Part shown: in pieces, positions 7,547 through 32,255 of the stretch
Layout of the letters: the number at the start of each line of letters is the position of its first letter
Position numbering within the stretch: position 1 is the first letter of the stretch
NCBI GenBank assembly: GCA_964390475.1
Contig: CAYMIB010000002.1
Span: 1 to 42,995, forward strand
Origin: an uncultured Candidatus Saccharibacteria bacterium
Lineage (GTDB): Bacteria > Patescibacteriota > Minisyncoccia > Phycocordibacterales > DATGWK01
Length of the DNA stretch: 42,995 bases
Direction of reading: 5' to 3'
Position numbers and translations under genes: made by a program
The notes under the pieces: generated by a model
The model's database searches: none
Seen by the model: only the letters and a program-made list of their open reading frames with translations
Told to the model about the DNA's origin: nothing

Positions 7547-7552
7547 AAATTG

Positions 7553-11722: not shown

Positions 11723-11848
11723 GTAAGGACACAGTATATTGGAAAATGGCGGGTGTCGCAACAGTATTTAGGCCGCAAATTAGGCCACGGGGCTTGGGTC
11801 GTCGTCGCCTATTTTCCGCGCCGCCAAAGAGTGATAAAATTGCCCGAT

Positions 11849-12526: not shown

Positions 12527-12547
12527 AGCGAGTAAAATTAAAAGAAA

Positions 12548-13051
12548 ATGAAAATTTCGAAACCTTTAGTTATTATTTTTCTGGTTTTGGCGGCTGTTGG
12601 TTTTCTTGATGCTACATATCTCACCGTCGAACATTACCTTGGTGTGATTCCTCCATGCGTCATTGCTGGCGGCTGTTCAGTGGTTTTAACCAGCGAATGG
12701 AGTGTGGTTTATGGCATACCAATCGCCTTGTTGGGCTCAGTCTACTATTTATCTCTGTTAATTCTGGCGGTTATTTATCTAAAAACTCGTTCGACTAGCG
12801 AAAATAACGGCTCTGAAACCCTAATAGTTACGGCTTCTTTCACGACCATTATCGGCTTTTTGACTTCAATTTTTCTTGTCGGTCTACAACTCTTTGTCAT
12901 CAAAGACATCTGCTTCTATTGCATAATTTCTGCAATATCTTCTATTGCTTTGTTTGTTGTCGGAACACTTATCTTGTTGAATTACAGACGAAAAATACAG
13001 ACGGAAAATCATGAACGGCTTGGTCGGTCAACAGCGAGCGAAATAATGTGA
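12548..13051 (+). CDS. Vitamin K epoxide reductase (VKOR) family membrane protein
   Basis: 167 aa and multi-TM. Loop cysteines CVIAGGC and a CFYC (CxxC) in the last TM region. Sits directly downstream of DsbA. Confidence 0.75.
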   Translation: MKISKPLVIIFLVLAAVGFLDATYLTVEHYLGVIPPCVIAGGCSVVLTSEWSVVYGIPIALLGSVYYLSLLILAVIYLKTRSTSENNGSETLIVTASFTTIIGFLTSIFLVGLQLFVIKDICFYCIISAISSIALFVVGTLILLNYRRKIQTENHERLGRSTASEIM

Positions 13052-14037: not shown

Positions 14038-14042
14038 TATGC

Positions 14043-15293
14043 CTACAATTGTACACGATTCCGAACCTTCTTGTGGTATTTAATGGCAAATCTGTGGGCT
14101 TCGCTATTAGCTAACAAAATCGCGGCTTCTCTTTTTGTGATTTGGCTTTCCTCACCCAAAATTTCTCGGGGTTTATGTTTTTCATCCTTAACCACCGACA
14201 CAACAGGAACGCTGATGCCTATTTTTTTCAAAACTTCCGACGCATGATTTATATGAGTTTTGCCACCGTCAACAACAACCAGCGATGGCATAGACCATTC
14301 GGGGTGAGAAAACCTCCGGGTCAAAACTTCAGTCAAAGCTTTCAGGTCGTCACTTTTTTCTTGCTGACGAATCTTAAACATTCGATACTCGGCCGGATCA
14401 GCCTCCCCATCACGCACAACAACCATTACTCCAACCATCGACGAACCCGAGAAATGAGAAATATCGTAGGCCTCTATTCTGTCCGAATTTCCCTGGCCGG
14501 AATCCTTTTCACGATGAATGAGAGCCACGTCCTGAATGTGTCGCAAAGCAAAAACTGTTTTCTTAACCTGACCAGCTTTTTCAAATTGCTTTTGTTTGGC
14601 TAAGTCCTTCATTTCTCGCTCAAGCGAAGCTAAAAGAACTTTTTTCTTGCCCTCAAAAAATAGCGTTAAATGCTTGATCGTTTTCTCGTACTCTTTTTTG
14701 GTAATTTCTCCTGAACAAACTCCCGGACAAAGACCGATTTGGCGGTTGAAACATGGACGAGGGTGTTGACCCACTGACTCTTTTACTTCTGTTGCGGGTA
14801 AACATTTGTCCCGATATGGAAAGATTCGGCGAATGATTTTCATAGCCACTCTAAGAGAACTGCCATTTGGAAATGGTCCGAAAATAGCTCGGTAGGATTC
14901 TGGATTTGAATATTTTTTTTCGATTTCTCGACCCCGAATCACTAGCACTCGTGGAAAATCCTCGTTGGTAATCAAAACAAAGTTATAGCTTCGGTCATCC
15001 TTTTCTTTTGTGTTGTGAAATGGCTGGTGTTTTTTTATAAGTGCCACTTCGAGAATAAGTGCTTCCAAAACCGAATCCGTGGTCTGGAAATCAACCTTGG
15101 TCGCCGCCTCGATCATTTTCAAAACAAGTGGCCCGCGAGTTTCAATTAAATCCTTAGCAAAATAACTTTTCACTCGGTCACGGAGTGAAGTGGCCTTTCC
15201 AACATAAAGAATCTTCCTCTTTTTATCCTTGAAAAAATAAACCCCTGGAAGATCCGGCAGTTTTTTTGCTTTTTTAAGAAGCGAAATGTTCAT
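14043..15293 (-). CDS. uvrC: Excinuclease ABC subunit C, short form lacking the C-terminal HhH region
   Basis: GIY-YIG N-terminus (GVYFFKDKKRKILYVGKATSLRDRVKSY), a UVR-like helix (QKQFEKAGQVKKTVFALRHI) and an endonuclease region ending HRFAIKYHKK. It is 416 aa, versus about 600 aa that I recall for E. coli UvrC. Confidence 0.85.
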   Translation of the reverse strand: MNISLLKKAKKLPDLPGVYFFKDKKRKILYVGKATSLRDRVKSYFAKDLIETRGPLVLKMIEAATKVDFQTTDSVLEALILEVALIKKHQPFHNTKEKDDRSYNFVLITNEDFPRVLVIRGREIEKKYSNPESYRAIFGPFPNGSSLRVAMKIIRRIFPYRDKCLPATEVKESVGQHPRPCFNRQIGLCPGVCSGEITKKEYEKTIKHLTLFFEGKKKVLLASLEREMKDLAKQKQFEKAGQVKKTVFALRHIQDVALIHREKDSGQGNSDRIEAYDISHFSGSSMVGVMVVVRDGEADPAEYRMFKIRQQEKSDDLKALTEVLTRRFSHPEWSMPSLVVVDGGKTHINHASEVLKKIGISVPVVSVVKDEKHKPREILGEESQITKREAAILLANSEAHRFAIKYHKKVRNRVQL

Positions 15294-15334
15294 TAGATAT
15301 TAGACAAGTGACACAAAGATATCGGATACCGCGT

Positions 15335-18034
15335 CTAACCCTTTTTGAGCGCCCTTTTTAAGTAATAACCCGTGTAGGATTTTTCTGAATTCGCTATGTC
15401 TTCTGGCGTACCTTTGGCCACAATCTGTCCGCCGCCGGCACCGCCCTCTGGCCCAATATCGATCACGTAGTCAGCACATTTTATGACATCAATGTTGTGC
15501 TCAATAACAATCACCGTATTGCCGCGATCAACGAGCTTGTCGAGAATTTCAATCAGCTTTTTTACATCTTCGTAATGCAAACCGATTGTTGGTTCATCGA
15601 GTAGGTAAATAGTTTTCTGAACATGCTGACGATAGAGCTCGGAAGAAATTTTTACACGCTGAGCCTCGCCACCAGAAAGAGTGGTCGCCGACTGACCGAG
15701 CTCAAGGTATCCAAGCCCAACTTCATCCATGGTTTTGAGGCGATCGTGAACAGCTGGAATATCTTTAAAAAACTCAAGCGCCTCTTCGACGGTCATTTTC
15801 AGCACATCGTGAATGTTTTTCTTTTTATATTTAACTTCAAGCGTATCTTTCATGAAGCGTTTGCCGTTACAGACGTCGCATGGCACATAGACCGTCGGCA
15901 AGAAATGCATTTCAACTTCAATCATTCCGTTTCCCTGACAGGTTTCGCATCGGCCGCCACGAACGTTAAATGAAAAACGATTGGCTTTCCAACCACGAAC
16001 TCTGGACTCGCTGGTTTCGGCAAAAAGCTCACGGATGAAGGTCCAAGCGCCAGTGTAAGTCGCTGGATTTGAGCGCGGAGTTCGACCAATCGGTGACTGG
16101 TCTATTAAAATCGTCCGACCAACGTATTCGGTGCCAGTGAAACTACTGCAGTTAAAAGTTTCTGCCGAACGATATCGTCTTTCAAGTCGGGACTGAAGAT
16201 TTTTGTGAACAATTTCGTACATAAAGGACGACTTGCCGGATCCAGAAACGCCAGTTATCGCCACCATTTTACCAAGCGGAATGTCGGCATTAAGATTTTT
16301 GATATTAAAAACATTACCGCTTCGAATAGACAAAGCACCAGCGTTTTTGTCTCGACGTTTTTCTGGCACCTCAACTTTTTTGTCTCCGCGCAGATAGTCG
16401 AGTGTCAGCGAGCCAGAATCATTTTTCTTAGCCGTCAAAAGTTTTTCCAAATCATCAGCCACCACAACTTCCCCACCATGAATTCCCGCCCCCGGGCCAA
16501 TGTCGACAAGATAATCTGAAGAGAAAATCGTGTCTTCGTCGTGCTCAACGACTAAAATCGTGTTGCCTAGATCCCGCAGGTTGTGCAGGGTTTTCAAAAG
16601 CCGATCGTTGTCTCTTGAGTGAAGACCGATTGTCGGCTCATCGAGCACATACAGAGCACCAACGAGGCCCGACCCAAGCTGAGACGCCAAACGGATACGC
16701 TGAGCCTCACCGCCAGACAAAGTATGGGCTCGCCGATCCAACGATAAATATTCAATACCGACGTTAACCATGAAATCGAGTCGGGATTCGATTTCGCGCA
16801 AAATAACTTTCGAAATACTTTTTTCTCTAGCCGTGATTTTTATTTTCTTGAGGAAATCGTTGCAGTCATGAATAGACATCGACACAAAATCGACGATATT
16901 TTTGCCACCAACTAAAACATGCAAGGCCTCTTCACGCAGACGCGCTCCTTTACATTTTGGACAAGAATCCTTTCCAAAAAAATGCAGGGTACCAAGGCCA
17001 TGACATTCAGGACAAGCACCATACGGTGAGTTAAAAGAAAAAAGTCGTGGCTCAATTTCCGGATATGAGTAACCGTCACGAGGACAAGAAAATTTCGAAG
17101 ACATGGTGAACGTTTCCTCTTTCTCATCCGCGTCGCCCCCTTCTTCCTTATTGGTTTTTTTGACCGATTTCTTTGGATTAAGAACGTTAAACGAAATTCT
17201 GACCAAGCCATCCGATTCATTCAGGGTTCGCTCCAAAGATTCACTTAGGCGTTCAAAAGCGCCACTTTTTGGATTTTTGAAGTCGTAAATATTGATTTGA
17301 TCAACCAGAACGTCAATGCTATGAGTTTTATTGCGGGAAAGAATGATTTGCTCGCGAAGTTTCTTGCGTTCGCCGTCAACAACGACATCAGAAAAACCCT
17401 TACCGAGCAGGTCGTAAAGAAGTTGGTAGTACTCACCCTTTCTACCTCGAACAAGCGGGGCAAAAAGCTCGACATAGATCGGGAAATTCATCGGTCGGTC
17501 ACTTTCTTTTGGTGCCGTTTTCAGCCGGGCATTTATTTTTTCAATTATAAAATTCTTGATCTCATCATTCGACAAACGCTCGATTTCATTTCCACAAACC
17601 AAACAGTGTGGCCGACCAATGCGAGCATATAGAATTCGCAAATAGTCGTAGATTTCTGTTATGGTCGCTACCGTTGAACGAGGGTTGTTTGACCGAGATT
17701 TTTGGTCGATTGAAATAGCCGGTGAAAGACCGACAATTTCATCTACGTCAGGCTTTTGCATTTGGCGCAAAAACTGTCTGGCATATGACGACAAAGATTC
17801 AACATACCGTCGCTGACCTTCGGCAAAAATCGTATCAAAAGCTAATGAAGACTTACCGGAGCCAGAAAGTCCAGTAAAAGCAATCATTTTATTGCGCGGC
17901 ATCTCAACCGTAATGTTTTTAAGGTTGTGGGTCCGAGCGCCTCGAACGATGATTTTCTCGTCCTGCCGACCAGATCGGCCGGAATCCCGGTTTGCGGCGC
18001 CGTTGTTTGTTTCTTTTGAGTTTTTATCCATCAA
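15335..18034 (-). CDS. uvrA: Excinuclease ABC subunit A
   Basis: 899 aa. Two ABC modules (GLSGSGKSS / GVSGSGKSS, LSGGEAQR twice) and zinc-finger Cys clusters (CPECHGLG, CETCQGNG). Confidence 0.95.
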   Translation of the reverse strand: MMDKNSKETNNGAANRDSGRSGRQDEKIIVRGARTHNLKNITVEMPRNKMIAFTGLSGSGKSSLAFDTIFAEGQRRYVESLSSYARQFLRQMQKPDVDEIVGLSPAISIDQKSRSNNPRSTVATITEIYDYLRILYARIGRPHCLVCGNEIERLSNDEIKNFIIEKINARLKTAPKESDRPMNFPIYVELFAPLVRGRKGEYYQLLYDLLGKGFSDVVVDGERKKLREQIILSRNKTHSIDVLVDQINIYDFKNPKSGAFERLSESLERTLNESDGLVRISFNVLNPKKSVKKTNKEEGGDADEKEETFTMSSKFSCPRDGYSYPEIEPRLFSFNSPYGACPECHGLGTLHFFGKDSCPKCKGARLREEALHVLVGGKNIVDFVSMSIHDCNDFLKKIKITAREKSISKVILREIESRLDFMVNVGIEYLSLDRRAHTLSGGEAQRIRLASQLGSGLVGALYVLDEPTIGLHSRDNDRLLKTLHNLRDLGNTILVVEHDEDTIFSSDYLVDIGPGAGIHGGEVVVADDLEKLLTAKKNDSGSLTLDYLRGDKKVEVPEKRRDKNAGALSIRSGNVFNIKNLNADIPLGKMVAITGVSGSGKSSFMYEIVHKNLQSRLERRYRSAETFNCSSFTGTEYVGRTILIDQSPIGRTPRSNPATYTGAWTFIRELFAETSESRVRGWKANRFSFNVRGGRCETCQGNGMIEVEMHFLPTVYVPCDVCNGKRFMKDTLEVKYKKKNIHDVLKMTVEEALEFFKDIPAVHDRLKTMDEVGLGYLELGQSATTLSGGEAQRVKISSELYRQHVQKTIYLLDEPTIGLHYEDVKKLIEILDKLVDRGNTVIVIEHNIDVIKCADYVIDIGPEGGAGGGQIVAKGTPEDIANSEKSYTGYYLKRALKKG

Positions 18035-21318: not shown

Positions 21319-23376
21319 TTATTTCTTATTTTGATATAAGCGTTCCAACTCCGCGATCTCATCGCGTAAAATCGCCGCGGTTTCGAAGTCGAGGATTTTT
21401 ACGGCATTAGACATTTGAAGCTTTTTTTCTTTGAGCAAACCTTTTGGTTTCTTTTTGAAAATTTGAGCGTCGATGGCGAGCAGATTCTGGACAGCCTTTG
21501 AATGTTCGCTTCGCATACTTTCTGAAATATCTCGAATCGCCTTGCTAATCGTTTTCGGAGTAATGCCGTGTTTTTTATTGTATTCGAGTTGAAGGGTTCG
21601 GCGGCGGTTGGTTTCGCCTATCGCTCGTTCCATCGAGCCAGTTACACGGTCGGCGTAAAGCACGACTTCACCCTCGATATTTCGAGCGGCGCGGCCGATA
21701 ATCTGTATTAGCGACGTTTCTGAACGCAAAAAACCTTCCTTATCAGCGTCGAGGATGCCGATGAAAGCCAATTCGGGCAAATCGAGACCTTCTCGAAGCA
21801 GGTTGACGCCAACAAGCACGTCGAACTCGCCACGGCGGAAACGAGTCAAAATTTCTATGCGCTCGATGGTCAAAATGTCACTATGTAAATATTCCGCTTT
21901 GATTTTTCGCTCTTTCAAAAACTCGCTCAGATCTTCCGCCATTTTTTTGGTCAGAGTGGTTGCAACCGCTCGATGCCCGCGTTTTATAAAATCTTCGGCT
22001 TTTTCTATGAAGTCCTGAACTTGGCCTTTGTAGGCGTTTTTCCCACCAGAGGCGCCGACCGAGCTCGCCATCACCGGCAACACGGTAATTTTCGGATCAA
22101 TCAAACCAGTCGGGCGAATCACCTGCTCGACAACATTTTCGCTATGCTCTGCTTCATATTTTCCCGGCGTCGCAGAAGTGTAAATCACCTGCCCGACTCG
22201 TTCCTCAAATTCATTGAACTTCAAGGGGCGGTTGTCTCGGGCTGACGGCAAACGAAAACCGTGATCAATGAGGGTTTTCTTTCGAGCCGCATCGCCGTTA
22301 TACATACCACCAATTTGCGGCACGGTGACATGCGATTCATCAATGATTGTCAGGAAATCCGGCGAACCGTCGGCTTTATGCGGAAAATATGAGAGTAAAG
22401 AATCTGGCGCATCACCAGCGATCCGTCCAGAAAAATGACGCGAATAATTTTCGATTCCACTGCAATAGCCAATTTCGCGGATCAGAGCTAGATCATACCG
22501 AGTGCGACGCTTGAGACGTTCGTGTTCGAGCACCTTGCCTTCTTTTTTAAAAAGTTTGAGCTGTTCTTCGAGTTCAGACTCGATCGTTTTAAGCGCATGT
22601 TCCACTTGCTCAGGGTTGGTAATGAAATGCTTTGCTGGAAAAAGAAAGAAAACTTTTACATCTTCCAAAATAGTGCCCGAAACACCCTCAATTTTTTTAA
22701 TGCTCACAATCTCATCGCCGTTTTTTCCAGTCCCGAGCTCGAGTCGATACACCACTTTTTCGTTGACAGGCATGATTTCGATCGAATTGCCCACCGCTCG
22801 GAATAAACCAGGGGTCAAGTCGGCATTGGTTCGTTCAAAATGAAGACCAATGAGAGCACGCATAAAATCGCCGCGATAGATTCCCTGCCCGCGCTCGATT
22901 CGCATATTTACTTTTTCGTACTCCACTGGACTACCAAGGCCATAAATACACGACACCGAAGCAACAATGATCACATCCTTCCTAGTGAGCAAAGCTTGAG
23001 TCGACGCGTGCCGAAGGCGGTCGATTTCTTCATTTATCTGTGCTTCCTTCTCTATATATGTATCCGTCACCGGCATATAGGCTTCCGGCTGATAATAGTC
23101 GTAGTAGGAAACAAAATAATGCACGGCGTTGTTAGGGAAAAATTCGCGATATTCCTGGGCAAGCTGAGCGGCCAGAGTTTTGTTGTGGGCAATAACCAGC
23201 GTCGGTTTGCCGGCGTTTGCAATGACATTGGCCACCGTAAACGTTTTTCCCGAGCCAGTTACGCCAAAAAGCGTCTGATGCTGCAGACCTTTTTTGAGTC
23301 CGTCAGTTAGACCTTGGATCGCCTTAGGCTGATCACCGGCCGGGGCGAATTCGGATTTGAGGTTAAAGAGGGACAT
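21319..23376 (-). CDS. uvrB: Excinuclease ABC subunit B
   Basis: 685 aa. GVTGSGKT, IIDESHVT and the C-terminal UVR motif FETAAILRDEIAELE. Confidence 0.95.
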   Translation of the reverse strand: MSLFNLKSEFAPAGDQPKAIQGLTDGLKKGLQHQTLFGVTGSGKTFTVANVIANAGKPTLVIAHNKTLAAQLAQEYREFFPNNAVHYFVSYYDYYQPEAYMPVTDTYIEKEAQINEEIDRLRHASTQALLTRKDVIIVASVSCIYGLGSPVEYEKVNMRIERGQGIYRGDFMRALIGLHFERTNADLTPGLFRAVGNSIEIMPVNEKVVYRLELGTGKNGDEIVSIKKIEGVSGTILEDVKVFFLFPAKHFITNPEQVEHALKTIESELEEQLKLFKKEGKVLEHERLKRRTRYDLALIREIGYCSGIENYSRHFSGRIAGDAPDSLLSYFPHKADGSPDFLTIIDESHVTVPQIGGMYNGDAARKKTLIDHGFRLPSARDNRPLKFNEFEERVGQVIYTSATPGKYEAEHSENVVEQVIRPTGLIDPKITVLPVMASSVGASGGKNAYKGQVQDFIEKAEDFIKRGHRAVATTLTKKMAEDLSEFLKERKIKAEYLHSDILTIERIEILTRFRRGEFDVLVGVNLLREGLDLPELAFIGILDADKEGFLRSETSLIQIIGRAARNIEGEVVLYADRVTGSMERAIGETNRRRTLQLEYNKKHGITPKTISKAIRDISESMRSEHSKAVQNLLAIDAQIFKKKPKGLLKEKKLQMSNAVKILDFETAAILRDEIAELERLYQNKK

Positions 23377-23426: not shown

Positions 23427-23453
23427 ACGCGGAGTGTCCGAAGACCCCCGCGT
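23427..23453 (-). terminator. Strong intrinsic terminator ending the helicase/hairpin-tail transcript
   Basis: Minus strand: ACGCGGgggtc-TTCG-gacactCCGCGT followed by TTTTTTT. The loop is a cUUCGg tetraloop. This is the first terminator-like structure downstream of the helicase stop. Confidence 0.75.
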
Positions 23454-23456
23454 CTG

Positions 23457-24101
23457 TAGAAGAGAAAAGAACAACTAACTAGACAGAACCCTACGAAACT
23501 GAACACCAGAAACGCCCACAAAGCCTTTCAGCAATGTGAGCCTGTACTCGACCCGAGATCACTGAACAGTACTGCACGATACCACGCATCACATGGCGAT
23601 AATCGAATAGTGCGAGACGTTTTTCAACGCCCTGCACTCTGAACTACAACGAACAAAAGAGGACTTGGCGACACAGTACAATGCGCCAGTAAATCGAACT
23701 CAAATGTACACGAAAGGCCTTTCGGCTTCTCGTGTCGGCACAGAAGATCACAGGAGGCCACCGAACTACAGGTCACGACGCTACAGAGAACCTAACTGGA
23801 CTCAATCAGAAACGCACCAAGGACCTTCCGGCCTCCGGTGCCTGTACCAATCAATACTGTACCTAACAGTACACGACACCAGGTCACTAGAATTACAAGT
23901 GCACAGAAGCCCTTTCGGATTTCTGTGCCGATAGAGAACCGGACCTTAGGGTGCTCTAGAATACAGAACTCCACGGGACAGCACTTAACCTAAAATTGCA
24001 CAGAGTGATCGAAAGATTACTCTGTGCCTAAAGTACACCATACTGTACTCAGCGACACAGAGCGGCAGAGTACAAAAGTGAACCATGTGTCCGGCTACAA
24101 A
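23457..24101 (-). ncRNA. Hairpin-unit tail downstream of the helicase ORF (six hairpin units, no intervening terminator)
   Basis: Family hairpins at 23514-23541, 23610-23637, 23708-23735, 23814-23841, 23901-23928 and 23998-24027. Five are 28 nt (12 bp + GAAA/GGAA on the minus strand) and one is 30 nt. Spacing is 87-106 nt. No credible ORF, and no promoter or terminator between the helicase stop (24102) and 23453. Confidence 0.55.
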
Positions 24102-25940
24102 TTAGAGAAGCAGCTTCTCTGCATCCTTCACCGCGGCGTCAAACGTCAGGTCGCCCATGTAGACTTGCTGAAGATGTTTGGGCAGTGAAGCGAAGACGTG
24201 GCGACGGAACTGTTGGGAAATGAAGAACGTGACGCCAACATCGGAGCGGCTCCGAATGTTGCGTCCACGAACCTGAAGCGCTTGTTGCATTGCCCGCTGA
24301 CCCCAGATCGCCCAGCGCTGACCTCCCCACCGATCCTCCTCGAACTGAGTTCCAGGATCACGAGGGTTTGGATAACTTGGACGAAGAAAAAAGATGACGG
24401 GCGCCATCTGCCTTGGAAGATCAATTCCCTCGGCGTAGTTGGCGGCGGTACCAACCAAAGTACTTCCTTCACCCTGCTTGAAGATGTTGGCAGCTTCCTT
24501 GGCTGTTACACCGTTGCCGTAGCTGATTACCTCGAGACCCTCTTCTGCGGCCATCCGCAAAAAACGATCTCGTTCATCATTTGAAACGACAACCACCAAC
24601 GAACGTAGCCCCTTGTCGGCAAACTGCTTGCATGAACGTGCAATCTGACGCAACGTTTTTGGCAGATCCCGATCGCTCCGCGTATTTCTTGCGAGGTTTG
24701 GCGTGTCGGTTGGCATGTAGACCCTTGTATTGCTGGCTGGGAAATTCGAATCGAGAGACAGGAACGGATCCTTGATCCCCGTTTCGAACCCAAAGATCTC
24801 AGGGTTGCCAATCGTTGCCGACAGCGACACCCGGTTCTTAGGCAAAATCATTTTGATGAGCGGCACTACGTAGTAGCACCGCACCACCAACTTGGTTTGG
24901 AACCGACCTTCTGAGACACGTTCCCTTCTCTGGAATGCGCAGGTGTAGTTGAGTGCCTTCCTTTCTTCGGTTGGCACTGAATACTCAAGCGTTGAGATGT
25001 ACCGCCTGAGATCTCTCACGAGAGTCTCGAGCTTTTTCAATGTGACACGATCCTCACGTGGATCGATCTTGCCCTTTTTCACAGCATCTCTGATAGCAAC
25101 AGCAAGCTCTTTCACATCGATTTCCCGGAGGATTTCGATGAGTTGAAGAACTTGTGCTGGCTTGAGAAGCGCTGCTTCACCAACTGCCATGCGACCAGCG
25201 ATTGAAATCATCTTTCGCCTGAATGTCCTCAGGACTCTTGCGACCTTTGGGGCAACTGACGTCAGAATTTCTTCTGATCGCTTGAGGTGTAGATCAGTAA
25301 TGTCGTAGGAAAGAGAGTTGCGGACGACGTTTGCCAACTGATGCGCCTCGTCGATCACCACACCTTGAGTATTGAACTCCTTTGAAAACAAGTGGGTGAA
25401 GAGAAAGAAGGACATCGTTGAGAGCACAAGCCGTGCTTTCTTTGCCTTATACTTTTGCTGAAGATACGGGCAAGCCGTTGCTCCCTTCACATGAGTCTCG
25501 CCCGTTTCTTGGTCTACCCGATGCGGGCAGTCCTGAAGAAATGAACACGGAATCTGATCGGCACGAGGATTTTCTGGATCATCGACAAGTGTTTCAAGCG
25601 TTTCCGATGAAACTCTCGGCTCGTTCCGGTAATACAAGCACGGATGCTCATTTCGTCCCAAAGCAACTGGCAGATCCGGAAACTCTATCCGAATCTGATC
25701 CAAAATCGTCTTGGTCGGCGTAATGATGAACACCGTACCGTCTGTCTGCGTTCGCATGTAGTTTGCGATCGCAAATTCCACAGCCGTTTTTCCTGTCCCT
25801 GTCGGCGCCTCGATGATTGCAGAGCCATGCTCCGCGTAAAACTCGAGCATGTCGTTTTGCACAACTCGTGGCTCACGATACACCGCCGTGCTTGGAAAGT
25901 GCGTTTTAAGCACTGGCAAGCTGATGGTCTTTTGGCCCAT
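24102..25940 (-). CDS. DinG/XPD (Rad3)-family SF2 helicase with four-Cys Fe-S cluster insertion
   Basis: 612 aa. Strong SD (gaAAGGAGGtccataATG). Walker A APTGTGKT. Cys cluster HPCLYY..IPCSFLQDCPH..ACPYLQ. DEAH box VVIDEAHQL. Motif VI QALQVRGRNIRSRSDVGVTFF. Confidence 0.8.
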   Translation of the reverse strand: MGQKTISLPVLKTHFPSTAVYREPRVVQNDMLEFYAEHGSAIIEAPTGTGKTAVEFAIANYMRTQTDGTVFIITPTKTILDQIRIEFPDLPVALGRNEHPCLYYRNEPRVSSETLETLVDDPENPRADQIPCSFLQDCPHRVDQETGETHVKGATACPYLQQKYKAKKARLVLSTMSFFLFTHLFSKEFNTQGVVIDEAHQLANVVRNSLSYDITDLHLKRSEEILTSVAPKVARVLRTFRRKMISIAGRMAVGEAALLKPAQVLQLIEILREIDVKELAVAIRDAVKKGKIDPREDRVTLKKLETLVRDLRRYISTLEYSVPTEERKALNYTCAFQRRERVSEGRFQTKLVVRCYYVVPLIKMILPKNRVSLSATIGNPEIFGFETGIKDPFLSLDSNFPASNTRVYMPTDTPNLARNTRSDRDLPKTLRQIARSCKQFADKGLRSLVVVVSNDERDRFLRMAAEEGLEVISYGNGVTAKEAANIFKQGEGSTLVGTAANYAEGIDLPRQMAPVIFFLRPSYPNPRDPGTQFEEDRWGGQRWAIWGQRAMQQALQVRGRNIRSRSDVGVTFFISQQFRRHVFASLPKHLQQVYMGDLTFDAAVKDAEKLLL

Positions 25941-26007
25941 TATGGACCTCCTTTCGATGTTACGATGTTACTTTAACGCTCAAACATTAAACAAAAAAAC
26001 AGAACTG

Positions 26008-26026
26008 AAACGCACACGATGCGTTT
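26008..26026 (-). promoter_or_regulatory. Hairpin in the helicase 5' leader (possible attenuator or bidirectional terminator)
   Basis: AAACGCA-n5-TGCGTTT. On the + strand it is followed directly by TTTTTTT. On the minus strand it is preceded by an A-run and followed by cagttctgttttttt. Confidence 0.35.
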
Positions 26027-26060
26027 TTTTGTCAAAAAGCTTAAATTACCTCCGGGCGCG

Positions 26061-26089
26061 AGAATATCACATTTATTTTAATTTGTAAA
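26061..26089 (-). promoter_or_regulatory. Extended -10 sigma70 promoter for the helicase transcript
   Basis: Minus strand: TTTACAaattaaaataaatgTGaTATTCT with a 17-nt spacer. Same design as the array promoters. Confidence 0.6.
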
Positions 26090-26114
26090 GCATTGGTCGC
26101 ACGTCTCGCTAGCA

Positions 26115-26383
26115 TAAAAAATGCCAGCAAATCTTTCGAAATGCTGGCCTGCACTATAGGAAACTGCACAATACGTAACATTACCTCACTCTACTTCGAT
26201 CAAATTGTCGGTTGCAGATTTCTCAGCAACCGACCAGTAGACCAGAAAAACTTACGGGACATTACCATGGTGTACGATACCCCACAGTATGAAGTGTCGA
26301 TCGAGTTTTTCAACCCGACCGACCCGCGCAGAACAATACCCTGCCGGACCGTAGACTTGTTAACTGAACCACGGGGCTTGTTC
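26115..26383 (-). ncRNA. Hairpin-RNA unit U7 (2 hairpins)
   Basis: Runs from the promoter in module A to the terminator GCCAGCAtttc-GAAA-gatttGCTGGC + AUUUUUU (26123-26148). Family hairpins at 26207-26234 and 26295-26322. Confidence 0.55.
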
Positions 26384-26389
26384 GATATT

Positions 26390-26446
26390 AGAATAACACG
26401 CCAGATTTGGCTTGTAAAGTAAAAGCCGAGGGTTGGGTACCTCGGC
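26390..26446 (-). promoter_or_regulatory. Fused terminator-promoter module A
   Basis: Minus strand: GCCGAGG-tacccaac-CCTCGGC cttttacTTTACA -17 nt- TGtTATTCT. The hairpin is at 26425-26446, the -35 at 26413-26418 and the -10 at 26390-26395. Confidence 0.6.
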
Positions 26447-26809
26447 GAGTAGAACACGGAGCTGAAGGCAAGGGCACGTTAGAAAGGTTGACCCTACGAC
26501 ACTGAACCGGAAGTGTTGGCTTTGTGTTCCCACAAAACTAACCTATAGAGAACTGAACATAACTCGAGTGTAGGATACCTAGCTGGACTCTAATGAAATT
26601 GTCAGTTCGACCTTTCGACCAAACTGACCTATAGGAAAGGAAACGCGAGATCACAACGCTGGACAGTACTCCACCTGACGCTACTCAACATTACTCAACT
26701 AAAATTGTCATCCGGATTTTTCAACCCAGATGACCCATAGAATGCAGTACACCACCGCACGGCACCTCACACCACTTGAGGCTACTCAACATTACTGAAC
26801 CCAAGTTCC
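26417..26809 (-). ncRNA. Hairpin-RNA unit U6 (3 hairpins)
   Basis: Lies between the module B promoter and the module A terminator. Hairpins at 26515-26542, 26601-26628 and 26707-26734. Confidence 0.55.
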
Positions 26810-26815
26810 AAAAGG

Positions 26816-26872
26816 ATAATAACACGGAATATAATTTTTGTAAAATAAAAGCCGAGGGTTGATTACCTCGGC
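26816..26872 (-). promoter_or_regulatory. Fused terminator-promoter module B
   Basis: Minus strand: GCCGAGG-taatcaac-CCTCGGC ttttatTTTACA -17 nt- TGtTATTAT. Hairpin at 26851-26872, -35 at 26839-26844, -10 at 26816-26821. Confidence 0.65.
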
Positions 26873-27663
26873 GTACACTGTGGTCGACTTCGCATGACGA
26901 TACGAAACTAGACACGAACAAACTTGAAGTGTTGGCTGACCTTTTCAAGTCCGCCAACGAGCAGTGCGACAAACATTACTATAGTGCACAACACAATACA
27001 GTGCGCTATTTACCAGGTGGTCAAAAGTGTCAGTCGAGCCTTTCGGTCCAACTGACCCAAACATCACGTTAGGAGAGAGTGCCTTACTGCACAATACCTA
27101 GCCTGACAAGACCAGACAAATCGTCAGCGAGATCTTTGAACCTCGCTGACCCATACAGCAGTTTACTATTCCTTACTAGACTGAGCTATGCTCTAGAACA
27201 GTGAACCGCGTTTATCTATTACAATATCTCAACCGATTTTTTCAAACCGGTCGAGCCTTAGAATACCGTGATGTAGAAGACAGGAGACTACGTCGCCATA
27301 CTCGACCTGAGTCTACCCGACGGTGAAAATTTGTCAGTCCAGTTTTCACCAAACTGACCGAAAGTGGAGAACACTTAGGTATACGGCACAATACCGTACG
27401 ATACCCTGGCGAACTAAAACGTCAGTTCAACCTTCCGGCTAGACTGACCTACAGATAACTGAACCTGACTCGAACGCAGGTTACCTAGCTGGACTCTAAT
27501 GAAATTGTCAGTTCGACCTTTCGACCAAACTGACCGATAGAAAACTCAACTTGGCGGAACAAAACTGGACGCAACTAGAATTGTCATCCGGATTTTTCAA
27601 CCCAGATGACCAGTACTGCTCAGTAGCCAACTGCGCGGGACTCAACCTTGCAATACTCTATCC
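26843..27663 (-). ncRNA. Hairpin-RNA unit U5 (8 hairpins, longest unit)
   Basis: Hairpins at 26931-26958, 27029-27056, 27123-27150, 27228-27255, 27333-27358, 27421-27448, 27507-27534 and 27583-27610. Bounded by the module C promoter and the module B terminator. Confidence 0.55.
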
Positions 27664-27669
27664 GAATGC

Positions 27670-27724
27670 ATAATAACATGAATTATTTTTTTGTAAAATA
27701 AAAACCGAGGGTTGGTTACCTCGG
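27670..27724 (-). promoter_or_regulatory. Fused terminator-promoter module C
   Basis: Minus strand: CCGAGG-taaccaac-CCTCGG tttttatTTTACA -16 nt- TGtTATTAT. Hairpin at 27705-27724, -35 at 27692-27697, -10 at 27670-27675. Confidence 0.6.
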
Positions 27725-28099
27725 CGAAAAGCTAAGTGCCAATCACTTCTTTCGAAGAGAATGGCCCATACACAGCGGTACCGCACGCCAGGCCACCTGA
27801 CCTTACAGTGGTACACGAAGCTGAAATTGCTAGTCGAACTTTTCAGTTCGACTAGCCGGTACAAGACTCATGAGTACACGACCGAAGTCAACAGAACACT
27901 ACCGGAAATGTCAGCGTCACCTCTCGGCGAAACTGACCTACAGAGGAGTCAACACTGGGTTGCTGCACAAAACTCTACCTAACACTGCTACACGAAAGGA
28001 CAAAATGTCGAACTTGTGTTTCCACAAGATCGACCCTCAGAACACAAAGCCAGACTGGACAGAGCAACACACCACTAAACCATGTTATAAAAGCTGTCT
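27697..28099 (-). ncRNA. Hairpin-RNA unit U4 (4 hairpins)
   Basis: Hairpins at 27738-27765, 27829-27856 (perfect 12 bp + GAAA), 27910-27937 (GAGA loop) and 28007-28034. Confidence 0.55.
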
Positions 28100-28105
28100 A
28101 GCAAG

Positions 28106-28159
28106 ACAATAACACAAATTATTTTTTTGTAAAGAAAAACCGGCCACTTGGACCGGTTT
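28106..28159 (-). promoter_or_regulatory. Fused terminator-promoter module D (terminates the 86-aa ORF, promotes U4)
   Basis: Minus strand: AAACCGGtccaagtggCCGGTTT ttcTTTACA -16 nt- TGtTATTGT. The hairpin sequence differs from the other modules, but the promoter half is conserved. Confidence 0.6.
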
Positions 28160-28177
28160 GTGCTGTGACTCAGAGAT

Positions 28178-28438
28178 TCACTCGAACAAATAGAAGAGCT
28201 CTCCCTTCACGAGATCCTTCTCCTCAACCTCAATTTTCCCCTCAATCTCCTTAAGGATTTCTTTCCAATTCTCGGTGTTCTCACCAGTCCGGTATGTGAA
28301 TCTCTCAGCAATAGACTCACACCGTCCACCACCCTCTTGCCTTTGGCAGAGAATTCTGTCGGCCTCTTCCCGATTTTCAGCCAGAATCACGTAGCTGGTC
28401 AAGCCTGGTCCTGTGTAAATGTACGCCTTCAATTCCAT
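28178..28438 (-). CDS. Orphan 86-aa protein occupying one slot of the RNA-unit array
   Basis: The internal ATG at 28438 has the SD aAGGGGAaagtcATG. The track start at 28513 abuts the upstream terminator with no room for a promoter or RBS. Product MELKAYIYTGPGLTSYVILAENREEADRILCQ... has no motif I recognise. Confidence 0.6.
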   Translation of the reverse strand: MELKAYIYTGPGLTSYVILAENREEADRILCQRQEGGGRCESIAERFTYRTGENTENWKEILKEIEGKIEVEEKDLVKGELFYLFE

Positions 28439-28475
28439 GACTTTCCCCTTCGTTTGTGTGTTTGGATCTTTTCTC

Positions 28476-28504
28476 AGAGTATCATAAATATAAATACTTG
28501 TCAA
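28476..28504 (-). promoter_or_regulatory. Extended -10 promoter of the 86-aa ORF
   Basis: Minus strand: TTGACAagtatttatatttaTGaTACTCT with a 17-nt spacer. Confidence 0.55.
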
Positions 28505-28518
28505 ATGGACCATTCATA

Positions 28519-28800
28519 ATAAAAAAGTCGAGGATTGGTTACCTCGACGCGCACCAGGGTAAAGACTAGGCTACGAAACAAAACGGAACACTACTTTGCG
28601 AAATTGAAATTATTAGCTGAGCCTTTCGACCCAGCTAATCTACAGAGGAACAGACTGAGGTTAACGGTGCGATACGTTACCGTACGCCGCCTTAGACCAA
28701 ATTGTCAATCTCGCCTTTCAGCCAGACTGACCCGGAGAGTACTACAGTCAACAGCGGTAGACGGTAGATCACTGCACGTGAGTGAAGAACATCACGATCC
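28519..28800 (-). ncRNA. Hairpin-RNA unit U3 (2 hairpins)
   Basis: Hairpins at 28612-28639 (AUUAG.../...CUAAU base) and 28704-28731. Confidence 0.55.
28521..28548 (-). terminator. Terminator E (ends unit U3)
   Basis: Minus strand: GTCGAGG-taaccaat-CCTCGAC followed by TTTTTTATTAT. Same hairpin family as modules A-C, F and G, with a compensatory stem change. Confidence 0.65.
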
Positions 28801-28806
28801 GCACTC

Positions 28807-28862
28807 ACTATAACACGAATATCGTTTTTGTAAAATAAAAGCCAAGGGTTGGGTACCTCGGC
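28807..28862 (-). promoter_or_regulatory. Fused terminator-promoter module F
   Basis: Minus strand: GCCGAGG-tacccaac-CCTTGGC ttttatTTTACA -16 nt- TGtTATAGT. The stem has a G.U pair on the minus strand, which would be an A.C mismatch on the + strand. Confidence 0.6.
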
Positions 28863-29043
28863 GAGTAGGAAGGTGGACACCAGAAGACGATGCGAAACAC
28901 AACAGTAAAACACTGAACTTTATTTTTTTGAATTGTCAGCCCAGTTTTTCAACCGGACTGACCCGCAGACAACTACACAGCAGTAGAGTACACGTCACAT
29001 CACGCAACTCGACCGTGCAAAACGTAACCTCAATTACTTTTCT
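28833..29043 (-). ncRNA. Hairpin-RNA unit U2 (1 hairpin)
   Basis: Single hairpin at 28935-28962, identical in sequence to the inverted copy at 30833-30860. Confidence 0.55.
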
Positions 29044-29049
29044 TCAAAG

Positions 29050-29105
29050 ACAATAACATGGATTTATATTTTGTAAAATAAAAGCCAAGGATTGGTTACC
29101 TTGGC
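29050..29105 (-). promoter_or_regulatory. Fused terminator-promoter module G
   Basis: Minus strand: GCCAAGG-taaccaat-CCTTGGC ttttatTTTACA -16 nt- TGtTATTGT. The stem carries a compensatory G-C to A-U change relative to modules A-C. Confidence 0.6.
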
Positions 29106-29744
29106 GTAGAGTGGAGTACACAGAACGACACTGAAGAGTGCAAGAGGATACCGCACACCACGTCACCTCAGACCACGCTAAAGCGTCAGCTCGATTTTTC
29201 AATCAAGCTGACCCGTACCTGGGAATACAACAGCTTGCTGGACGAGAGACTAGCGTACACTACTGGACCAAAGCGTCAGCTTAGTTTTTCAACCAGGCTG
29301 ACCAGCACGGAAGTCCGGCCCACGAGACATGGCTAGACACCACTTCAAATTGTCGGCATCACCTTTCGGTGTAACCGACCGGCACAGAACTCTGCCGTAG
29401 CTTACAGGGCTATACGTAACAGAGCCACAGACAAAATTAAATTGTCGACCGTGTGTTTCCACAAGATCGACCCTTAGCACAGCACAGTTAACGGCAGAAC
29501 ACGGCAGTTCACGGCACTTGAGTGTAGATCAAAGTGTTAGCCCAGCATTTCTACCGGGTTAACCAGCAGTGTACATCACCGCACATTACCAAAGACGACG
29601 TCACGCTACGAAACCTCACTTCAAAATTGTTGGCACCGCGTCTCCGCGATGCCAACCCATAGAGCACCGGACGCGACCTGGCGATACCTAACAATACCTT
29701 GGGTGACAATACCCTGGGTGACTGTACCCAACTTAGATCGATCC
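29076..29744 (-). ncRNA. Hairpin-RNA unit U1 (6 hairpins)
   Basis: Hairpins at 29185-29212, 29275-29302, 29352-29379, 29444-29471, 29536-29563 and 29629-29656. The 5' end is inferred from the putative promoter at 29751-29779. Confidence 0.5.
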
Positions 29745-29750
29745 TCACAA

Positions 29751-29793
29751 AATCTACTATCATGTTGACACGAAGTCAACCGTATGTTAAGTT
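29751..29793. promoter_or_regulatory. Back-to-back divergent promoters sharing a palindromic -35 region
   Basis: + strand: TTGACAcgaagtcaaccgtaTGtTAAGTT (29765-29793, 17-nt spacer) for the 242-aa gene. Minus strand: TTGACT -17 nt- TAGATT (29779 down to 29751) for U1. gTTGAC-acgaa-GTCAAc is a perfect inverted repeat. Confidence 0.5.
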
Positions 29794-29880
29794 TCGCCCG
29801 GACTCAAGAGTGAGGGCGTTGTGCCGCTCGCCTGAGATTTCTTTCAAGGGCTTGAAAAAGCCACAGTACGGAGAAAGACC

Positions 29881-30609
29881 ATGAAGCGTTTGCTGATCAC
29901 GTGTGTTGGTGCGTATCCCATCATGATGGACCCGATGACTGATGAAGTGCTCGACAGCCTCGCAACAGGCGTCCGTGTTCAGATCCAGAAGGATCTGTCT
30001 CATGCCGATGTCGCTCGCAAGAAGATCTACCGCGAGAATGGCGACAAGGATGGTCGGATCGGCCTGCCGACCGAAATGCTTTTCGCGGCATTGGTTGCGG
30101 CAGGTCGCAAGGTTTCCTACCGAGGCAAAACCAATATCTCGACCGCTGAAACCTCCATGTTGCCCGGCCTGCTCACGATCAACGAGGACTTCCTGCCGTT
30201 CCCAATTCCGGACGGCGCGACCGAGCCGAAGTGGACGGTCGACAAGCGGCGTGGACGTCTGGAGAACGGTACGGCTGTGTGCTTGCGTCGTCCCAAGTTC
30301 GCCGACTGGGGTTTCGAGGTCACCATTGACTTCGATGACAAGGAGATCAGCGAGGGCAAGGTTCGAGAACTCTTCAACATCGCCGGCCGGTTCTGCGGAC
30401 TCGGATCTTTCCGACCGAGCTGCAAGGGTCCGTTTGGTCGGTTCGCGGTCCAGAAACTCGCCGACATCACGCCCACCGAATGGGCGAATGAGCCGGCTGA
30501 GGAAATCGAAGAGGGCGACGACACTGACCAGACTGGCGGCGAAGAGCGCCGGACTGGCAACAGTCATGGCAGGACCGGGACCAGGAACGGCGCGCTCGCG
30601 GGAGCTTGA
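29881..30609 (+). CDS. GC-rich 242-aa hypothetical protein with RAMP-like glycine-rich motif (possible RNA-binding/processing protein)
   Basis: SD acGGAGaaagaccATG. Of three overlapping long frames this is the only one with an RBS and a balanced composition. GLGSFRPSCKGPFGRF, near the end of the folded part, resembles the RAMP/Cas6-type G-rich loop (weak). Acidic disordered tail. The functional call is low confidence. Confidence 0.75.
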   Translation: MKRLLITCVGAYPIMMDPMTDEVLDSLATGVRVQIQKDLSHADVARKKIYRENGDKDGRIGLPTEMLFAALVAAGRKVSYRGKTNISTAETSMLPGLLTINEDFLPFPIPDGATEPKWTVDKRRGRLENGTAVCLRRPKFADWGFEVTIDFDDKEISEGKVRELFNIAGRFCGLGSFRPSCKGPFGRFAVQKLADITPTEWANEPAEEIEEGDDTDQTGGEERRTGNSHGRTGTRNGALAGA

Positions 30610-30698
30610 ACCGGCAACTGACGTTCTTCAGAAGGCAATGTTGTTTTGTAGTGCATAGTAAACAGCAGTTGCGTCATGCGCGTTTCTGTTCACTATCG

Positions 30699-30756
30699 CG
30701 GGCGTCCTGAAAAGGGCGCCCGTTTTTCTTTACTAAATCGAAATTTGTGTTATCTT
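30699..30756 (+). promoter_or_regulatory. Fused terminator-promoter module on the + strand
   Basis: CGGGCGTCCT-GAAA-AGGGCGCCCG (10 bp + GAAA) followed by TTTTTcTTTACT -16 nt- TGtTATCTT. Same layout as the minus-strand modules. Confidence 0.6.
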
Positions 30757-30762
30757 GGCGTT

Positions 30763-30964
30763 TGGACTCAAGTAGACTAGTGTTCCGTTGAGTACAGCAG
30801 GCTTGAGTATGGATCAGTTCTCTTTTCCGCGGGTCAGTCCGGTTGAAAAACTGGGCTGACGATTAGACCTCAGTTTTGTGTTCCACAGTTCGCTCGTGTG
30901 ACGTGATGTCCATTTAAGTTCCGTTTTCTGTCCGCCAGGGTATCCAATCCCTGGCTTTTATTTT
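30763..30964 (+). ncRNA. Inverted (plus-strand) hairpin-RNA unit, paralogue of U2
   Basis: Hairpin at 30833-30860 (GTCAGTCCGGTT-GAAA-AACTGGGCTGAC). Terminator GCCAGGG-tatccaat-CCCTGGC + TTTTATTTT at 30934-30964, abutting the tgt stop codon. Confidence 0.55.
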
Positions 30965-30965
30965 C

Positions 30966-32255
30966 TTACACTAGATACTTTCCCAAAAACCCCCCCTTAA
31001 ACTCCGCGAACTTCCCTTCTAAAATCGCTTGGCGCATGTTTTCTACCAAATGCACGATGAAATAAAGGTTATGAATGGTCGCCAGCGTCGCGGCCAACAT
31101 TTCATCGGCCCGAAACAAGTGTGATAGATAAGCTCTGGTGTAATTTTTGCAGGTATAGCATTCGCAGTCGGCGTCAGGCCGAGAAAAATCACGGACATAC
31201 TTTGCATTGGTGAGATTAATTTTTCCGCTCGCGGTGTACAGTCCACCGTTTCGAGCGACTCTGGTCGGCGCGACGCAGTCAAAAAGATCAACACCGTTTT
31301 CGACACCCATAAAAAGATCTTCTGGCTCGCCTATGCCGAGCAAATGTCGTGGTTTTTCTTTTGGTAAAATTTCGTTCACCCACTGTACGGCCGTGATCAT
31401 GTCTTCTTTGGCAAAAGAACCACCGATGCCGAAGCCATCGAAACTCTGACCAGAAGCTGGGCCGCGCATGTCGGCAATCGCCTGGGCGCTTTCTTTACGC
31501 AAAATCTCCGAACGGCCGCCCTGAACAATTCCAAAAAGAGCAATTGGCGGTTTGTCTGCGGCCGCCCGCTCGGCCGAAAGTTTTTGGTGATGTTCAAGCG
31601 ACCGCTTCGCCCAGCGATGAGTGCGATCGAGAGCTTCGCGTTGATAATGATTCGATTCGTGTGGCGAAGTACATTCATCAAAAGCAAAAATTATGTCGGC
31701 GCCGAGATTGTGCTGAATTTCCATCGACTTTTCCGGCGTGAAGTAATGCGCACTGCCGTCGAGATGCGACCGAAATGTCACACCGTTTGGATCAATCGAA
31801 GCGATTTTTGGTTTCTCCTCACTGTCGCGACCATTTCCACCACCAACACTTCCTTCAGTTCGTTCGGCAAGCTGTAGTTCTTCGTCGCCCTCCACTGCAT
31901 GACCTTTTACAATTTTGCTAATCCCCTTTCCATACGCCGCACCAAGAGAGAAAACCTGAAAACCGCCAGAGTCGGTCATGGTCGGCCCTGGCCAATTCAT
32001 AAATTTCTGCAAACCTCCAGCGTCACGAACGAGTTCATCGCCCGGCTGAAGAAAAAGGTGGTATGTGTTGGCCAAAACAACCTGCGCACCGGTCTCGCGA
32101 ATTTGCTCAGGGGTAAGCGACTTGATAGTGGCCTTAGTAGCCACGGGGACAAAAGCCGGGGTCAAAATAGTGCCGTGGGGAGTTATAAGTTCGCCCGCAC
32201 GAGCTCTCGTGCCAGGCAACTCGGCTTTTATATTGAAAACAAAAGGTTTTTTCAC
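30966..32255 (-). CDS. tgt: tRNA-guanine transglycosylase (queuine tRNA-ribosyltransferase) with internal insertion
   Basis: 429 aa. TPAFVPVATKATIKS, TDSGGFQVFSL, FDECT and the zinc site CECYTCKNYTRAYLSHL. Carries an extra acidic/Gly-rich segment after FSLG. Confidence 0.9.
   Translation of the reverse strand: MKKPFVFNIKAELPGTRARAGELITPHGTILTPAFVPVATKATIKSLTPEQIRETGAQVVLANTYHLFLQPGDELVRDAGGLQKFMNWPGPTMTDSGGFQVFSLGAAYGKGISKIVKGHAVEGDEELQLAERTEGSVGGGNGRDSEEKPKIASIDPNGVTFRSHLDGSAHYFTPEKSMEIQHNLGADIIFAFDECTSPHESNHYQREALDRTHRWAKRSLEHHQKLSAERAAADKPPIALFGIVQGGRSEILRKESAQAIADMRGPASGQSFDGFGIGGSFAKEDMITAVQWVNEILPKEKPRHLLGIGEPEDLFMGVENGVDLFDCVAPTRVARNGGLYTASGKINLTNAKYVRDFSRPDADCECYTCKNYTRAYLSHLFRADEMLAATLATIHNLYFIVHLVENMRQAILEGKFAEFKGGFLGKYLV

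Follow-up and report, generated by a model that had tools for sequence, protein, structure and literature searches.

A probable chromosomal VIPR system with a helicase accessory gene and a large guide array in a Saccharibacteria-like genome

Introduction

RNA-guided DNA binding of a CRISPR-like kind was described in 2026 for loci named VIPR, for Viral Interference Programmable Repeat (10.64898/2026.04.26.720920), and here we analyze what is probably a further VIPR locus, a 7,539-nt island at positions 23427-30965 of a 42,995-nt stretch of DNA from an uncultured Candidatus Saccharibacteria bacterium (contig CAYMIB010000002.1, assembly GCA_964390475.1), hereafter called the window. In the accessible text of the two 2026 preprints from one group that define these systems (10.64898/2026.04.26.720920, 10.64898/2026.04.26.720927), Vipr is a minimal RAMP protein that polymerizes on guide RNAs termed vrRNAs, one protomer per repeat. 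The vrRNAs are about 100 nt long, carry a structured 3' tail behind 9-16 YNNGG pentamers, and co-purify with Vipr; NNNGG, YNNNG and NNNNG are given as natural variants of the repeat. The ribonucleoprotein (RNP) uses the variable bases to bind double-stranded DNA, skipping every third base of the target, and transcription is repressed. Seven types are distinguished among 667 representatives, types III and V being the only nuclease types. The systems characterized, those of Escherichia phage SUSP1 and of a prophage in Pseudomonas fulva, belong to type II only. Helicase-linked VIPRs and YNNNG repeats, the two traits that the window locus combines, are mentioned in the text available from both preprints and are not characterized there.

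The locus also resembles type IV-A CRISPR-Cas, which pairs a Csf complex with the DinG helicase Csf4, in combining a predicted RNA-guided RAMP filament with a helicase of the XPD/DinG family and no nuclease. Type IV-A interferes with plasmids and phages at the level of transcription and depends on DinG to do so, and we borrow it as a working model for the helicase. The host lineage, the Patescibacteria, has very small genomes and few CRISPR systems, most members having no CRISPR at all.

Results

With a probability of about 0.88, we read the island as a VIPR system of a helicase-accessory clade, encoded on the chromosome in a Saccharibacteria-like (Patescibacteria) genome. Every defining feature of a VIPR system that sequence can test is found in the locus. 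The kind itself was described in 2026, and the window locus is a further example of it, not a new kind; an earlier note on this DNA, made from the letters alone, had held that the island resembles nothing known, a statement that the description of VIPR in April 2026 has put out of date. What is particular to the window is the size and punctuation of the array, tails that covary copy by copy, terminators that double as tails, and an altered pocket for the first G of the repeat. Like the published loci, it is minimal: between uvrB and tgt lie only vipr, one accessory gene (the helicase) and an ORFan, with no cas genes and no CRISPR array, and long non-coding regions flank vipr.

The vipr gene (29881..30609, plus strand) encodes a 242-aa minimal single-RRM RAMP with a G-loop, GLGSFRPSCKGPFGRF, and a disordered C-terminal tail. 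The protein has no match in Pfam, NCBIfam or PADLOC and matches phrog_4652 over its full length (E 4e-17). Its 40 homologues, mostly from Patescibacteria, have in common the glycine-rich loop GLGSFRPxCKGPFGRF. When a profile of 29 homologues was searched against the PDB, the sole match was 36pp, 'SUSP1 Vipr protein' (E 9.8e-12, residues 2-192 aligned), so that the window, like the described systems, holds a minimal RAMP of about 20 kDa homologous to a characterized Vipr. The AlphaFold2 model (predicted local distance difference test score 88) has type VII Cas7 and Csm3 as its top Foldseek matches in the PDB (E ~1e-5; identity 9-16%), and among viral models it resembles an uncharacterized protein of 208 aa (E 2e-11) as well as a 'Cas system-associated RAMP superfamily protein'. 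The RAMP-like call of the earlier note is borne out by both comparisons. The likeness to Cas7 backbone proteins extends to the RRM core, the loop rich in glycine and the thumb and, according to the available text of the VIPR preprints, to polymerization along the guide with periodic base flipping. Vipr differs from Cas7 in that a single small protein would act alone, in a period of 5 nt, not 6 nt, and in the low identity.

The DNA between the hairpins of the island, in which no order had been seen before, reads on the transcribed strand as phased Y-N-N-N-G pentamers upstream of each hairpin. Reading upstream in a phase anchored at each hairpin's 5' end gives some 10-12 consecutive T/C-N-N-N-G pentamers. 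Over 451 pentamers, position 0 is T in 84% and C in 15% (T/C 99%) and position 4 is G in 71% and C in 25% (G/C 96%), while positions 1-3 are near uniform. With a tract called at 14 or more of 18 T...G matches over nine pentamers, 38 tract groups are obtained, all of them in the island (36 on the minus strand at 23454-29731 and two on the plus strand at 30753-30938), against 0.3 in shuffled sequence. Tracts hold 9-14 repeats, a range that some may exceed, and the median spacing from tail to tail is 92 nt. This is the anatomy of the described vrRNAs, 9-16 pentanucleotide repeats with hypervariable inner bases followed by a structured 3' tail, in the YNNNG variant that the available text of the preprints mentions along with helicase accessory genes. 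It departs from SUSP1 in a repeat of the form Y-N-N-N-G/C, with one conserved G and three variable bases. Because only two of the five positions are conserved, the TRF program misses the 5-nt period and reports only periods of 10 and 15, at two spots; TRF and repeat searches of the island found no identical repeats of the CRISPR type.

Units of a tract plus a tail number about 42 on ten transcription units, compared with four guides in SUSP1. The stand-alone minus-strand units U1 to U7 carry 7, 2, 3, 4, 9, 4 and 3 guides; seven others are read through from the helicase gene, one from vipr, and two lie behind a plus-strand promoter of their own. The two pentamers beside the tail are less variable than the rest, approximately T-N-Y-T-C and then T-R-Y-N-G, and may belong to the handle and not to the guide. 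Whole guides with their tails are duplicated at 74-80% identity between U6 and U5 (26527-26664 and 27433-27570; 26668-26765 and 27544-27641), which suggests that the array may grow by block duplication. For finding a pentamer position that drifts between paralogous guides, these two pairs are too few to be of use.

The tracts are followed by a hairpin of 28 nt or by a terminator hairpin. The former has one recurring design, a 12-bp stem closed by a GAAA-type tetraloop (GAAA in 24 of 30) with a 3' flank near AATTT, and it shows up in minimum free energy folds. A covariance model built from the hairpins, a check that the earlier note had proposed, finds 35 copies in the island and a single marginal match (E=0.66) elsewhere in the window. 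That note had counted 33 copies of one hairpin; the single design is real, and the number becomes 35 by the covariance model and about 42 when guide-like units are counted. Although the sequences vary from copy to copy, compensatory changes occur at all 12 stem pairs across 30 copies, and 94.4% of stem cells are paired, versus 65% in shuffles and 29-43% with slid partners. The 3' tail is therefore conserved in structure, as it is in VIPR. The hairpin had been taken for the functional unit; by analogy with VIPR it would be only a 3' cap, the information lying in the pentamer tract that had gone unseen.

On the minus strand the junctions between units repeat a fixed pattern, a GCCGAGG-8 nt-CCTCGGC stem with a T-run followed immediately by a TTTACA-16/17-TGnTATTAT promoter. 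The terminator hairpins have an in-phase pentamer tract upstream as well, from which it follows that each terminator hairpin is the tail of the last unit on its transcript, a doubling of roles that sets the window apart from SUSP1. Terminator-type tails share an 8-nt loop (GCCRAGG-TAMCCAAY-CCTYGGC) at 29084-29105, 28841-28862, 28527-28548, 27704-27725, 26851-26872, 26425-26446 and 30934-30955. Conservation of this loop apparently exceeds what a plain intrinsic terminator needs. The element GGTAACCAATCC recurs in VIPR loci of other Patescibacteria, and tails of the terminator type are also present in loci L007, L011, L029 and L032.

The accessory gene, of the vap type (24102..25940, minus strand), encodes a 612-aa superfamily 2 helicase of the XPD/Rad3/DinG family; the accessory gene of the characterized VIPR systems, in contrast, encodes a DNA-binding protein. 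The helicase matches Helicase_C_2, DEAD and DEAD_2 in Pfam, XPD, Rad3 and FANCJ among PDB sequences, and phrog_2488 (E 1.4e-40). It matches PADLOC typeIV_DinG (associated) PDLC01439 over its full length (E 5.6e-41), and four other PADLOC typeIV_DinG profiles match only the N-terminal ~100 residues. Across 15 homologues the motifs TGxGKT (Walker A), DExH (DEAH) and QxxGRxxR (motif VI) are invariant, as are C101, C138 and C157 of the four Fe-S cluster cysteines, C132 being nearly so. The hallmarks of the XPD/Rad3/DinG family are accordingly in place, superfamily 2 motifs together with an Fe-S domain of four cysteines lying between motifs Ia and II. Against the NCBIfam model TIGR03117 cas_csf4, the protein scores 29 bits where the cut-off is 400. 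At least 352 proteins, largely from Patescibacteria, make up its family, and Rad3-related helicase is their only annotation.

The residues that read the repeat offer a link between protein and RNA. As the available text of the preprints reports, in the GGY read by SUSP1 Vipr, H17 and D177 recognize the first G, R138 and W178 the second, and R179 the Y (10.64898/2026.04.26.720920, 10.64898/2026.04.26.720927). In the profile alignment H17 corresponds to D17 of the window protein, D177 to S176, R138 to R137, W178 to F177 and R179 to R178. R137, F177 and R178 are invariant across 140 loci. G occupies pentamer position 3 in ~70-90% of repeats where the residue at the H17 position is His, in ~25-50% where it is Asn and in ~20% where it is Asp, with a few exceptions to the relation between residue and repeat type in the same 140 loci. 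For the window clade, with Asp at the H17 position and Ser176, the ~20% of G equals background. We attribute the single conserved G of the window repeats to the replacement of the two first-G-reading residues, H17 and D177, by Asp and Ser. So far as the text of the VIPR preprints shows, the trend at the H17 position goes beyond what they report.

Related loci were surveyed with one genome per species, giving 62 loci. Candidatus Saccharibacteria metagenome-assembled genomes (MAGs) hold the closest of them, with identities of 53-55%. Of 30 loci of the Patescibacteria type, 25 have the helicase 1-3 kb away from vipr and the remaining five break off at contig ends; the helicase is absent from more distant Vipr clades (Magnetococcales, Victivallales, Planctomycetes and others). 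In the contexts of three homologues, set among unrelated housekeeping genes, vipr and the helicase again occur together with some 2 kb of non-coding DNA. Pentamer tracts in the related loci are confined to the intergenic DNA around vipr and the helicase, and so are the copies found by the tail model (31 in L007, 15 in L008, 7 in L025 and 1 in L009). Distant loci such as L001 have another tail stem (GGCAG...CTGCC) in an unchanged layout. The co-occurrence that the earlier note had asked about is thus found, and the situation that it said would count against its idea, hairpins spread through unrelated intergenic DNA without linkage to the two genes, is seen neither in the window nor in the related loci. 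Between the window and L007 or L008 the vipr and helicase DNA is ~70% identical, and the arrays cannot be aligned apart from the terminator-promoter junctions, which would be the expected behavior of hypervariable guides. Two MAGs labelled Gammaproteobacteria (L024, L062) hold a Vipr of Patescibacteria type, the helicase and pentamer tracts, and the label could reflect mis-binning or horizontal transfer.

Predicted transcription units can be drawn along the island. On the minus strand, U1 (29084..29779, seven guides) diverges from vipr, with a promoter-like site at 29779-29751, tails at 29656, 29563, 29471, 29379, 29302 and 29212, and a terminator-tail at 29105-29084. U2 (28841..29077, two guides) has its promoter at 29077-29050, a tail at 28962 and a terminator-tail at 28862-28841. 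U3 (28527..28834, three guides) runs from a promoter at 28834-28807 through tails at 28731 and 28639 to a terminator-tail at 28548-28527. U4 (27704..28133, four guides) has a promoter at 28133-28106, tails at 28034, 27937, 27856 and 27765, and a terminator at 27725-27704. The longest, U5 (26851..27697, nine guides), has a promoter at 27697-27670, tails at 27610, 27534, 27448, 27358, 27255, 27150, 27056 and 26958, and a terminator-tail at 26872-26851. U6 (26425..26844, four guides; promoter 26844-26816) has tails at 26734, 26628 and 26542 and a terminator-tail at 26446-26425, and U7 (26117..26418, three guides; promoter 26418-26390) has tails at 26323, 26234 and 26148-26123, the last with a T-run.

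Downstream on the same strand a sequence scan places a promoter-like site for the helicase, TTTACA-17-TATTCT, at 26061..26089, followed by a leader of ~120 nt. Within this leader, between the promoter-like site and the start codon, an 8-bp hairpin at 26008-26026 (minus strand) has a T-run a few bases on and could be an attenuator. The helicase gene then runs into U8 (23431..24101, minus strand, seven guides; tails at 24027, 23928, 23841, 23735, 23638 and 23541). A scan between the helicase stop codon and 23448 found no terminator-like site, the first being the terminator-tail at 23448-23431, in agreement with the earlier statement that the helicase frame runs into hairpin units. The other pairing that had been proposed, the 242-aa gene followed by units in its own orientation, is confirmed on the plus strand. 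A single guide read through from vipr (30610..30727) has as its tail the vipr terminator, 30699-30722 with a T-run (covariance model score 18.3 bits, E 0.021). It is followed by a two-guide unit (30728..30965) with a tail at 30833-30860, a terminator-tail at 30934-30955 and a promoter-like start, TTTACT...TGTTATCTT, read by eye. Eight units, each with a promoter and a terminator, had been described in the island; the junctions do repeat, and the count is revised to seven stand-alone minus-strand units, one linked to the helicase and two on the plus strand.

The island sits between uvrB (21319-23376, minus strand) and tgt (30966-32255, minus strand). Three open reading frames (ORFs) take up 2,826 of its 7,539 nt and leave 4,713 nt non-coding, in keeping with the ~2.8 and ~4.7 kb first noted. 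The island has a guanine plus cytosine (GC) content of 49.1%, compared with 43.4% for the window outside it and 47.3% and 50.2% for the flanking genes. The 242-aa gene reaches 59.7%, matching the ~60% estimated by hand, whereas a hand count of ~33% for a housekeeping gene was wrong. The island had been said to differ from its surroundings; that holds for the 242-aa gene, and the compositional contrast is otherwise modest.

The third frame, an 86-aa ORFan inside the array (28178..28438, minus strand; coding 28438-28181, stop codon 28180-28178), has its own ribosome-binding site and a terminator at 28159-28137. It was listed as a 111-aa ORF (28178-28513, minus strand), of which the likely true start yields 86 aa. 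In neither length does it have a family match in Pfam, NCBIfam, PADLOC or PHROG; among 5.8 billion proteins the only match of the 86-aa form is itself, and related loci hold no counterpart. That it is part of the system is doubtful. At the gathering threshold Rfam finds two tRNA-Ala genes in the whole window and nothing else (7552-7625 and 11649-11722, minus strand; anticodons GGC and TGC). Within the island at E<=1 it yields a single weak match to suhB/mmgR (E 0.067) but no ribozymes, which rules out an array of the hammerhead-interspersed kind.

Discussion

Taken together, the match of the 242-aa protein to SUSP1 Vipr, its Cas7/Csm3 fold and the vrRNA-like anatomy of the non-coding DNA bear out one of the ideas in the earlier note, an RNA-guided RNP system that is not canonical CRISPR. 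Its two other ideas, a toxin/antitoxin pair and a multimeric RNA assembly, find no support, and type III toxin-antitoxin arrays and retrons, also considered, do not fit. Among the published types we can only guess by elimination that the window system is type IV, III and V being the sole nuclease types in the available text.

By homology to the SUSP1 and P. fulva systems, Vipr would polymerize along the tract with one protomer per pentamer, its pockets holding the conserved G and Y and presenting the variable bases. The hairpin, by analogy with characterized VIPR, would cap the 3' end of the guide. The RNP would then bind double-stranded DNA matching the variable bases in a gapped register and block transcription, as its homologues do. 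The remaining steps are suggested by context. Cleavage in the A/U-rich linker downstream of each hairpin (consensus AAUUU) may free single guides from transcripts that carry several. The helicase may be recruited to the bound target, where it would serve to unwind the DNA, to clear it or to extend silencing in the manner of the type IV-A DinG. The targets may be phages or other mobile elements of the host. That the system as a whole serves antiviral defence with helicase-assisted interference stands, in our judgment, at about even odds.

Several considerations weigh against the VIPR assignment and this account of its action. Expression and processing of vrRNAs and formation of the RNP in the window clade are presumed from promoter-like and terminator-like sites. 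The SUSP1 tail is an invariant pseudoknot, whereas the window tails are simple 12-bp GAAA hairpins that differ and covary from copy to copy. With one conserved G, and Asp and Ser at the sites that contact the first G, the published rule of one skipped nucleotide may not apply unchanged. Some VIPR types carry predicted helicases and others nucleases, and the role of these is called unclear in the text at hand (10.64898/2026.04.26.720920, 10.64898/2026.04.26.720927). Searches for targets, besides, found none. Under four pairing rules (ab-x, abc, x-bc and abc-x), the best matches in 1.07 Mb comprising the window and related loci equaled those of order-shuffled guides. Eight exact ab-N and abc-N scans of viral contigs and metagenomes returned chance matches confined to the seed, one viral (L149) and two metagenome sequences, with flanks at chance (6 of 21). 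A codon-coherence test on the variable triplets was null, and a stop-codon test likewise gave no signal. These scans of public collections were limited to exact matches, the pairing rule of YNNNG repeats is not established, and the phages of these bacteria are poorly sampled. Because no targets were found, both antiviral defence and the role of the helicase are only inferred. For the guide that ends at 26734, the abc-N seed matched the two metagenome sequences, each on two contigs (L150-L153), one of them tRNA-like (GGATAGCTCAACGGTAGAGCG); they do not extend beyond the seed and are judged to be chance hits.

An alternative to host defence is that the VIPR system belongs to a mobile element or prophage remnant, which would use it as a weapon on rival elements in the way of the type II phage systems. 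According to the published text available, the majority of VIPRs come from viruses or proviruses, and the GC content of the island is raised and highest in vipr. In L007, the closest relative, the system lies not between uvrB and tgt but beside an N6/N4 DNA methylase, an unassigned protein of 621 aa, a large serine recombinase and an IS256-type transposase (244-3485, 10914-16934), which suggests a variable setting, defence-island-like or mobile. On the other hand, housekeeping genes surround the system in the window, L001, L003 and L008, phage and integrase genes are absent from these surroundings, and the uvrB-tgt position is common to the window and L008. Viral contigs in IMG/VR hold no Vipr above 36% identity, and the window clade therefore looks cellular. 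We consider a mobile-element origin unlikely.

Still less likely is a VIPR system that regulates the genes or promoters of its own host instead of acting on invaders. Such a function would sit well with transcriptional repression as the published mode of action, so far as the source text describes it, and with the failure to find viral targets. The 42 guides and their separate promoters make a large array for what is, on general grounds, expected to be a very small genome. However, no match above background occurs in the 43-kb window or in 1 Mb of related genomes, and the complete turnover of arrays between relatives whose genes are 70% identical is typical of an arms race and not of a regulator that acts on conserved genes.

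A degenerate or unusual type IV CRISPR-Cas system, in which a DinG helicase and a Cas7-like protein would accompany a decayed array, is scarcely credible. The full-length match of the helicase to PDLC01439 and the Cas7-like fold of Vipr would favor it. The cas_csf4 score falls far short, however, and the island has no genes for Cas5, Cas6, a Cas8-like protein, Cas1 or Cas2. Its repeats are not identical and their stems covary, and the apparent spacers are phased pentamers, a pattern seen in no CRISPR spacer and unlike the contiguous spacers of type IV-A. Membership in type IV-A proper is refuted by the lack of a Csf4 call, of Csf1, Csf2, Csf3 and Cas6 genes and of a near-identical repeat array. 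Equally remote is the idea of selfish intergenic repeats of the repetitive extragenic palindrome or bacterial interspersed mosaic element (REP/BIME) kind, or of an RNA scaffold functionally unlinked to both proteins: non-coding DNA rich in hairpins might suggest it, but hairpins and tracts are confined to the island and, in other genomes, to the surroundings of vipr and the helicase, each unit has promoters, terminators and one orientation, and there is no RAYT transposase.

With the island read as a VIPR system, a possible consequence of the altered G-binding residues concerns the code by which it would recognize DNA. One-G repeats come with a structure-sequence rule that can be tested. That the helicase-linked Patescibacteria clade uses a recognition code different from the published one is a tentative suggestion, about which we are doubtful. 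If the third free base does pair, the target register would be 3 or 3+1 nt per protomer and not 2+1. A filament with such a variant code, coupled to an XPD/DinG helicase, would if true amount to a nuclease-free immunity that is independent of CRISPR and similar to type IV-A, to whose origin it could relate.

Unlike SUSP1, whose locus is carried by a phage, the window offers a compact and well-delimited helicase-linked VIPR on the chromosome of a patescibacterium. Its guides, about 42, are unusually numerous and cleanly punctuated, and its close relatives L007 and L008 serve for comparison. Once the pairing rule is known, the 42 guides could link uncultured phages to their hosts. The locus suggests that Patescibacteria spend several kilobases of their DNA on RNA-guided DNA recognition.

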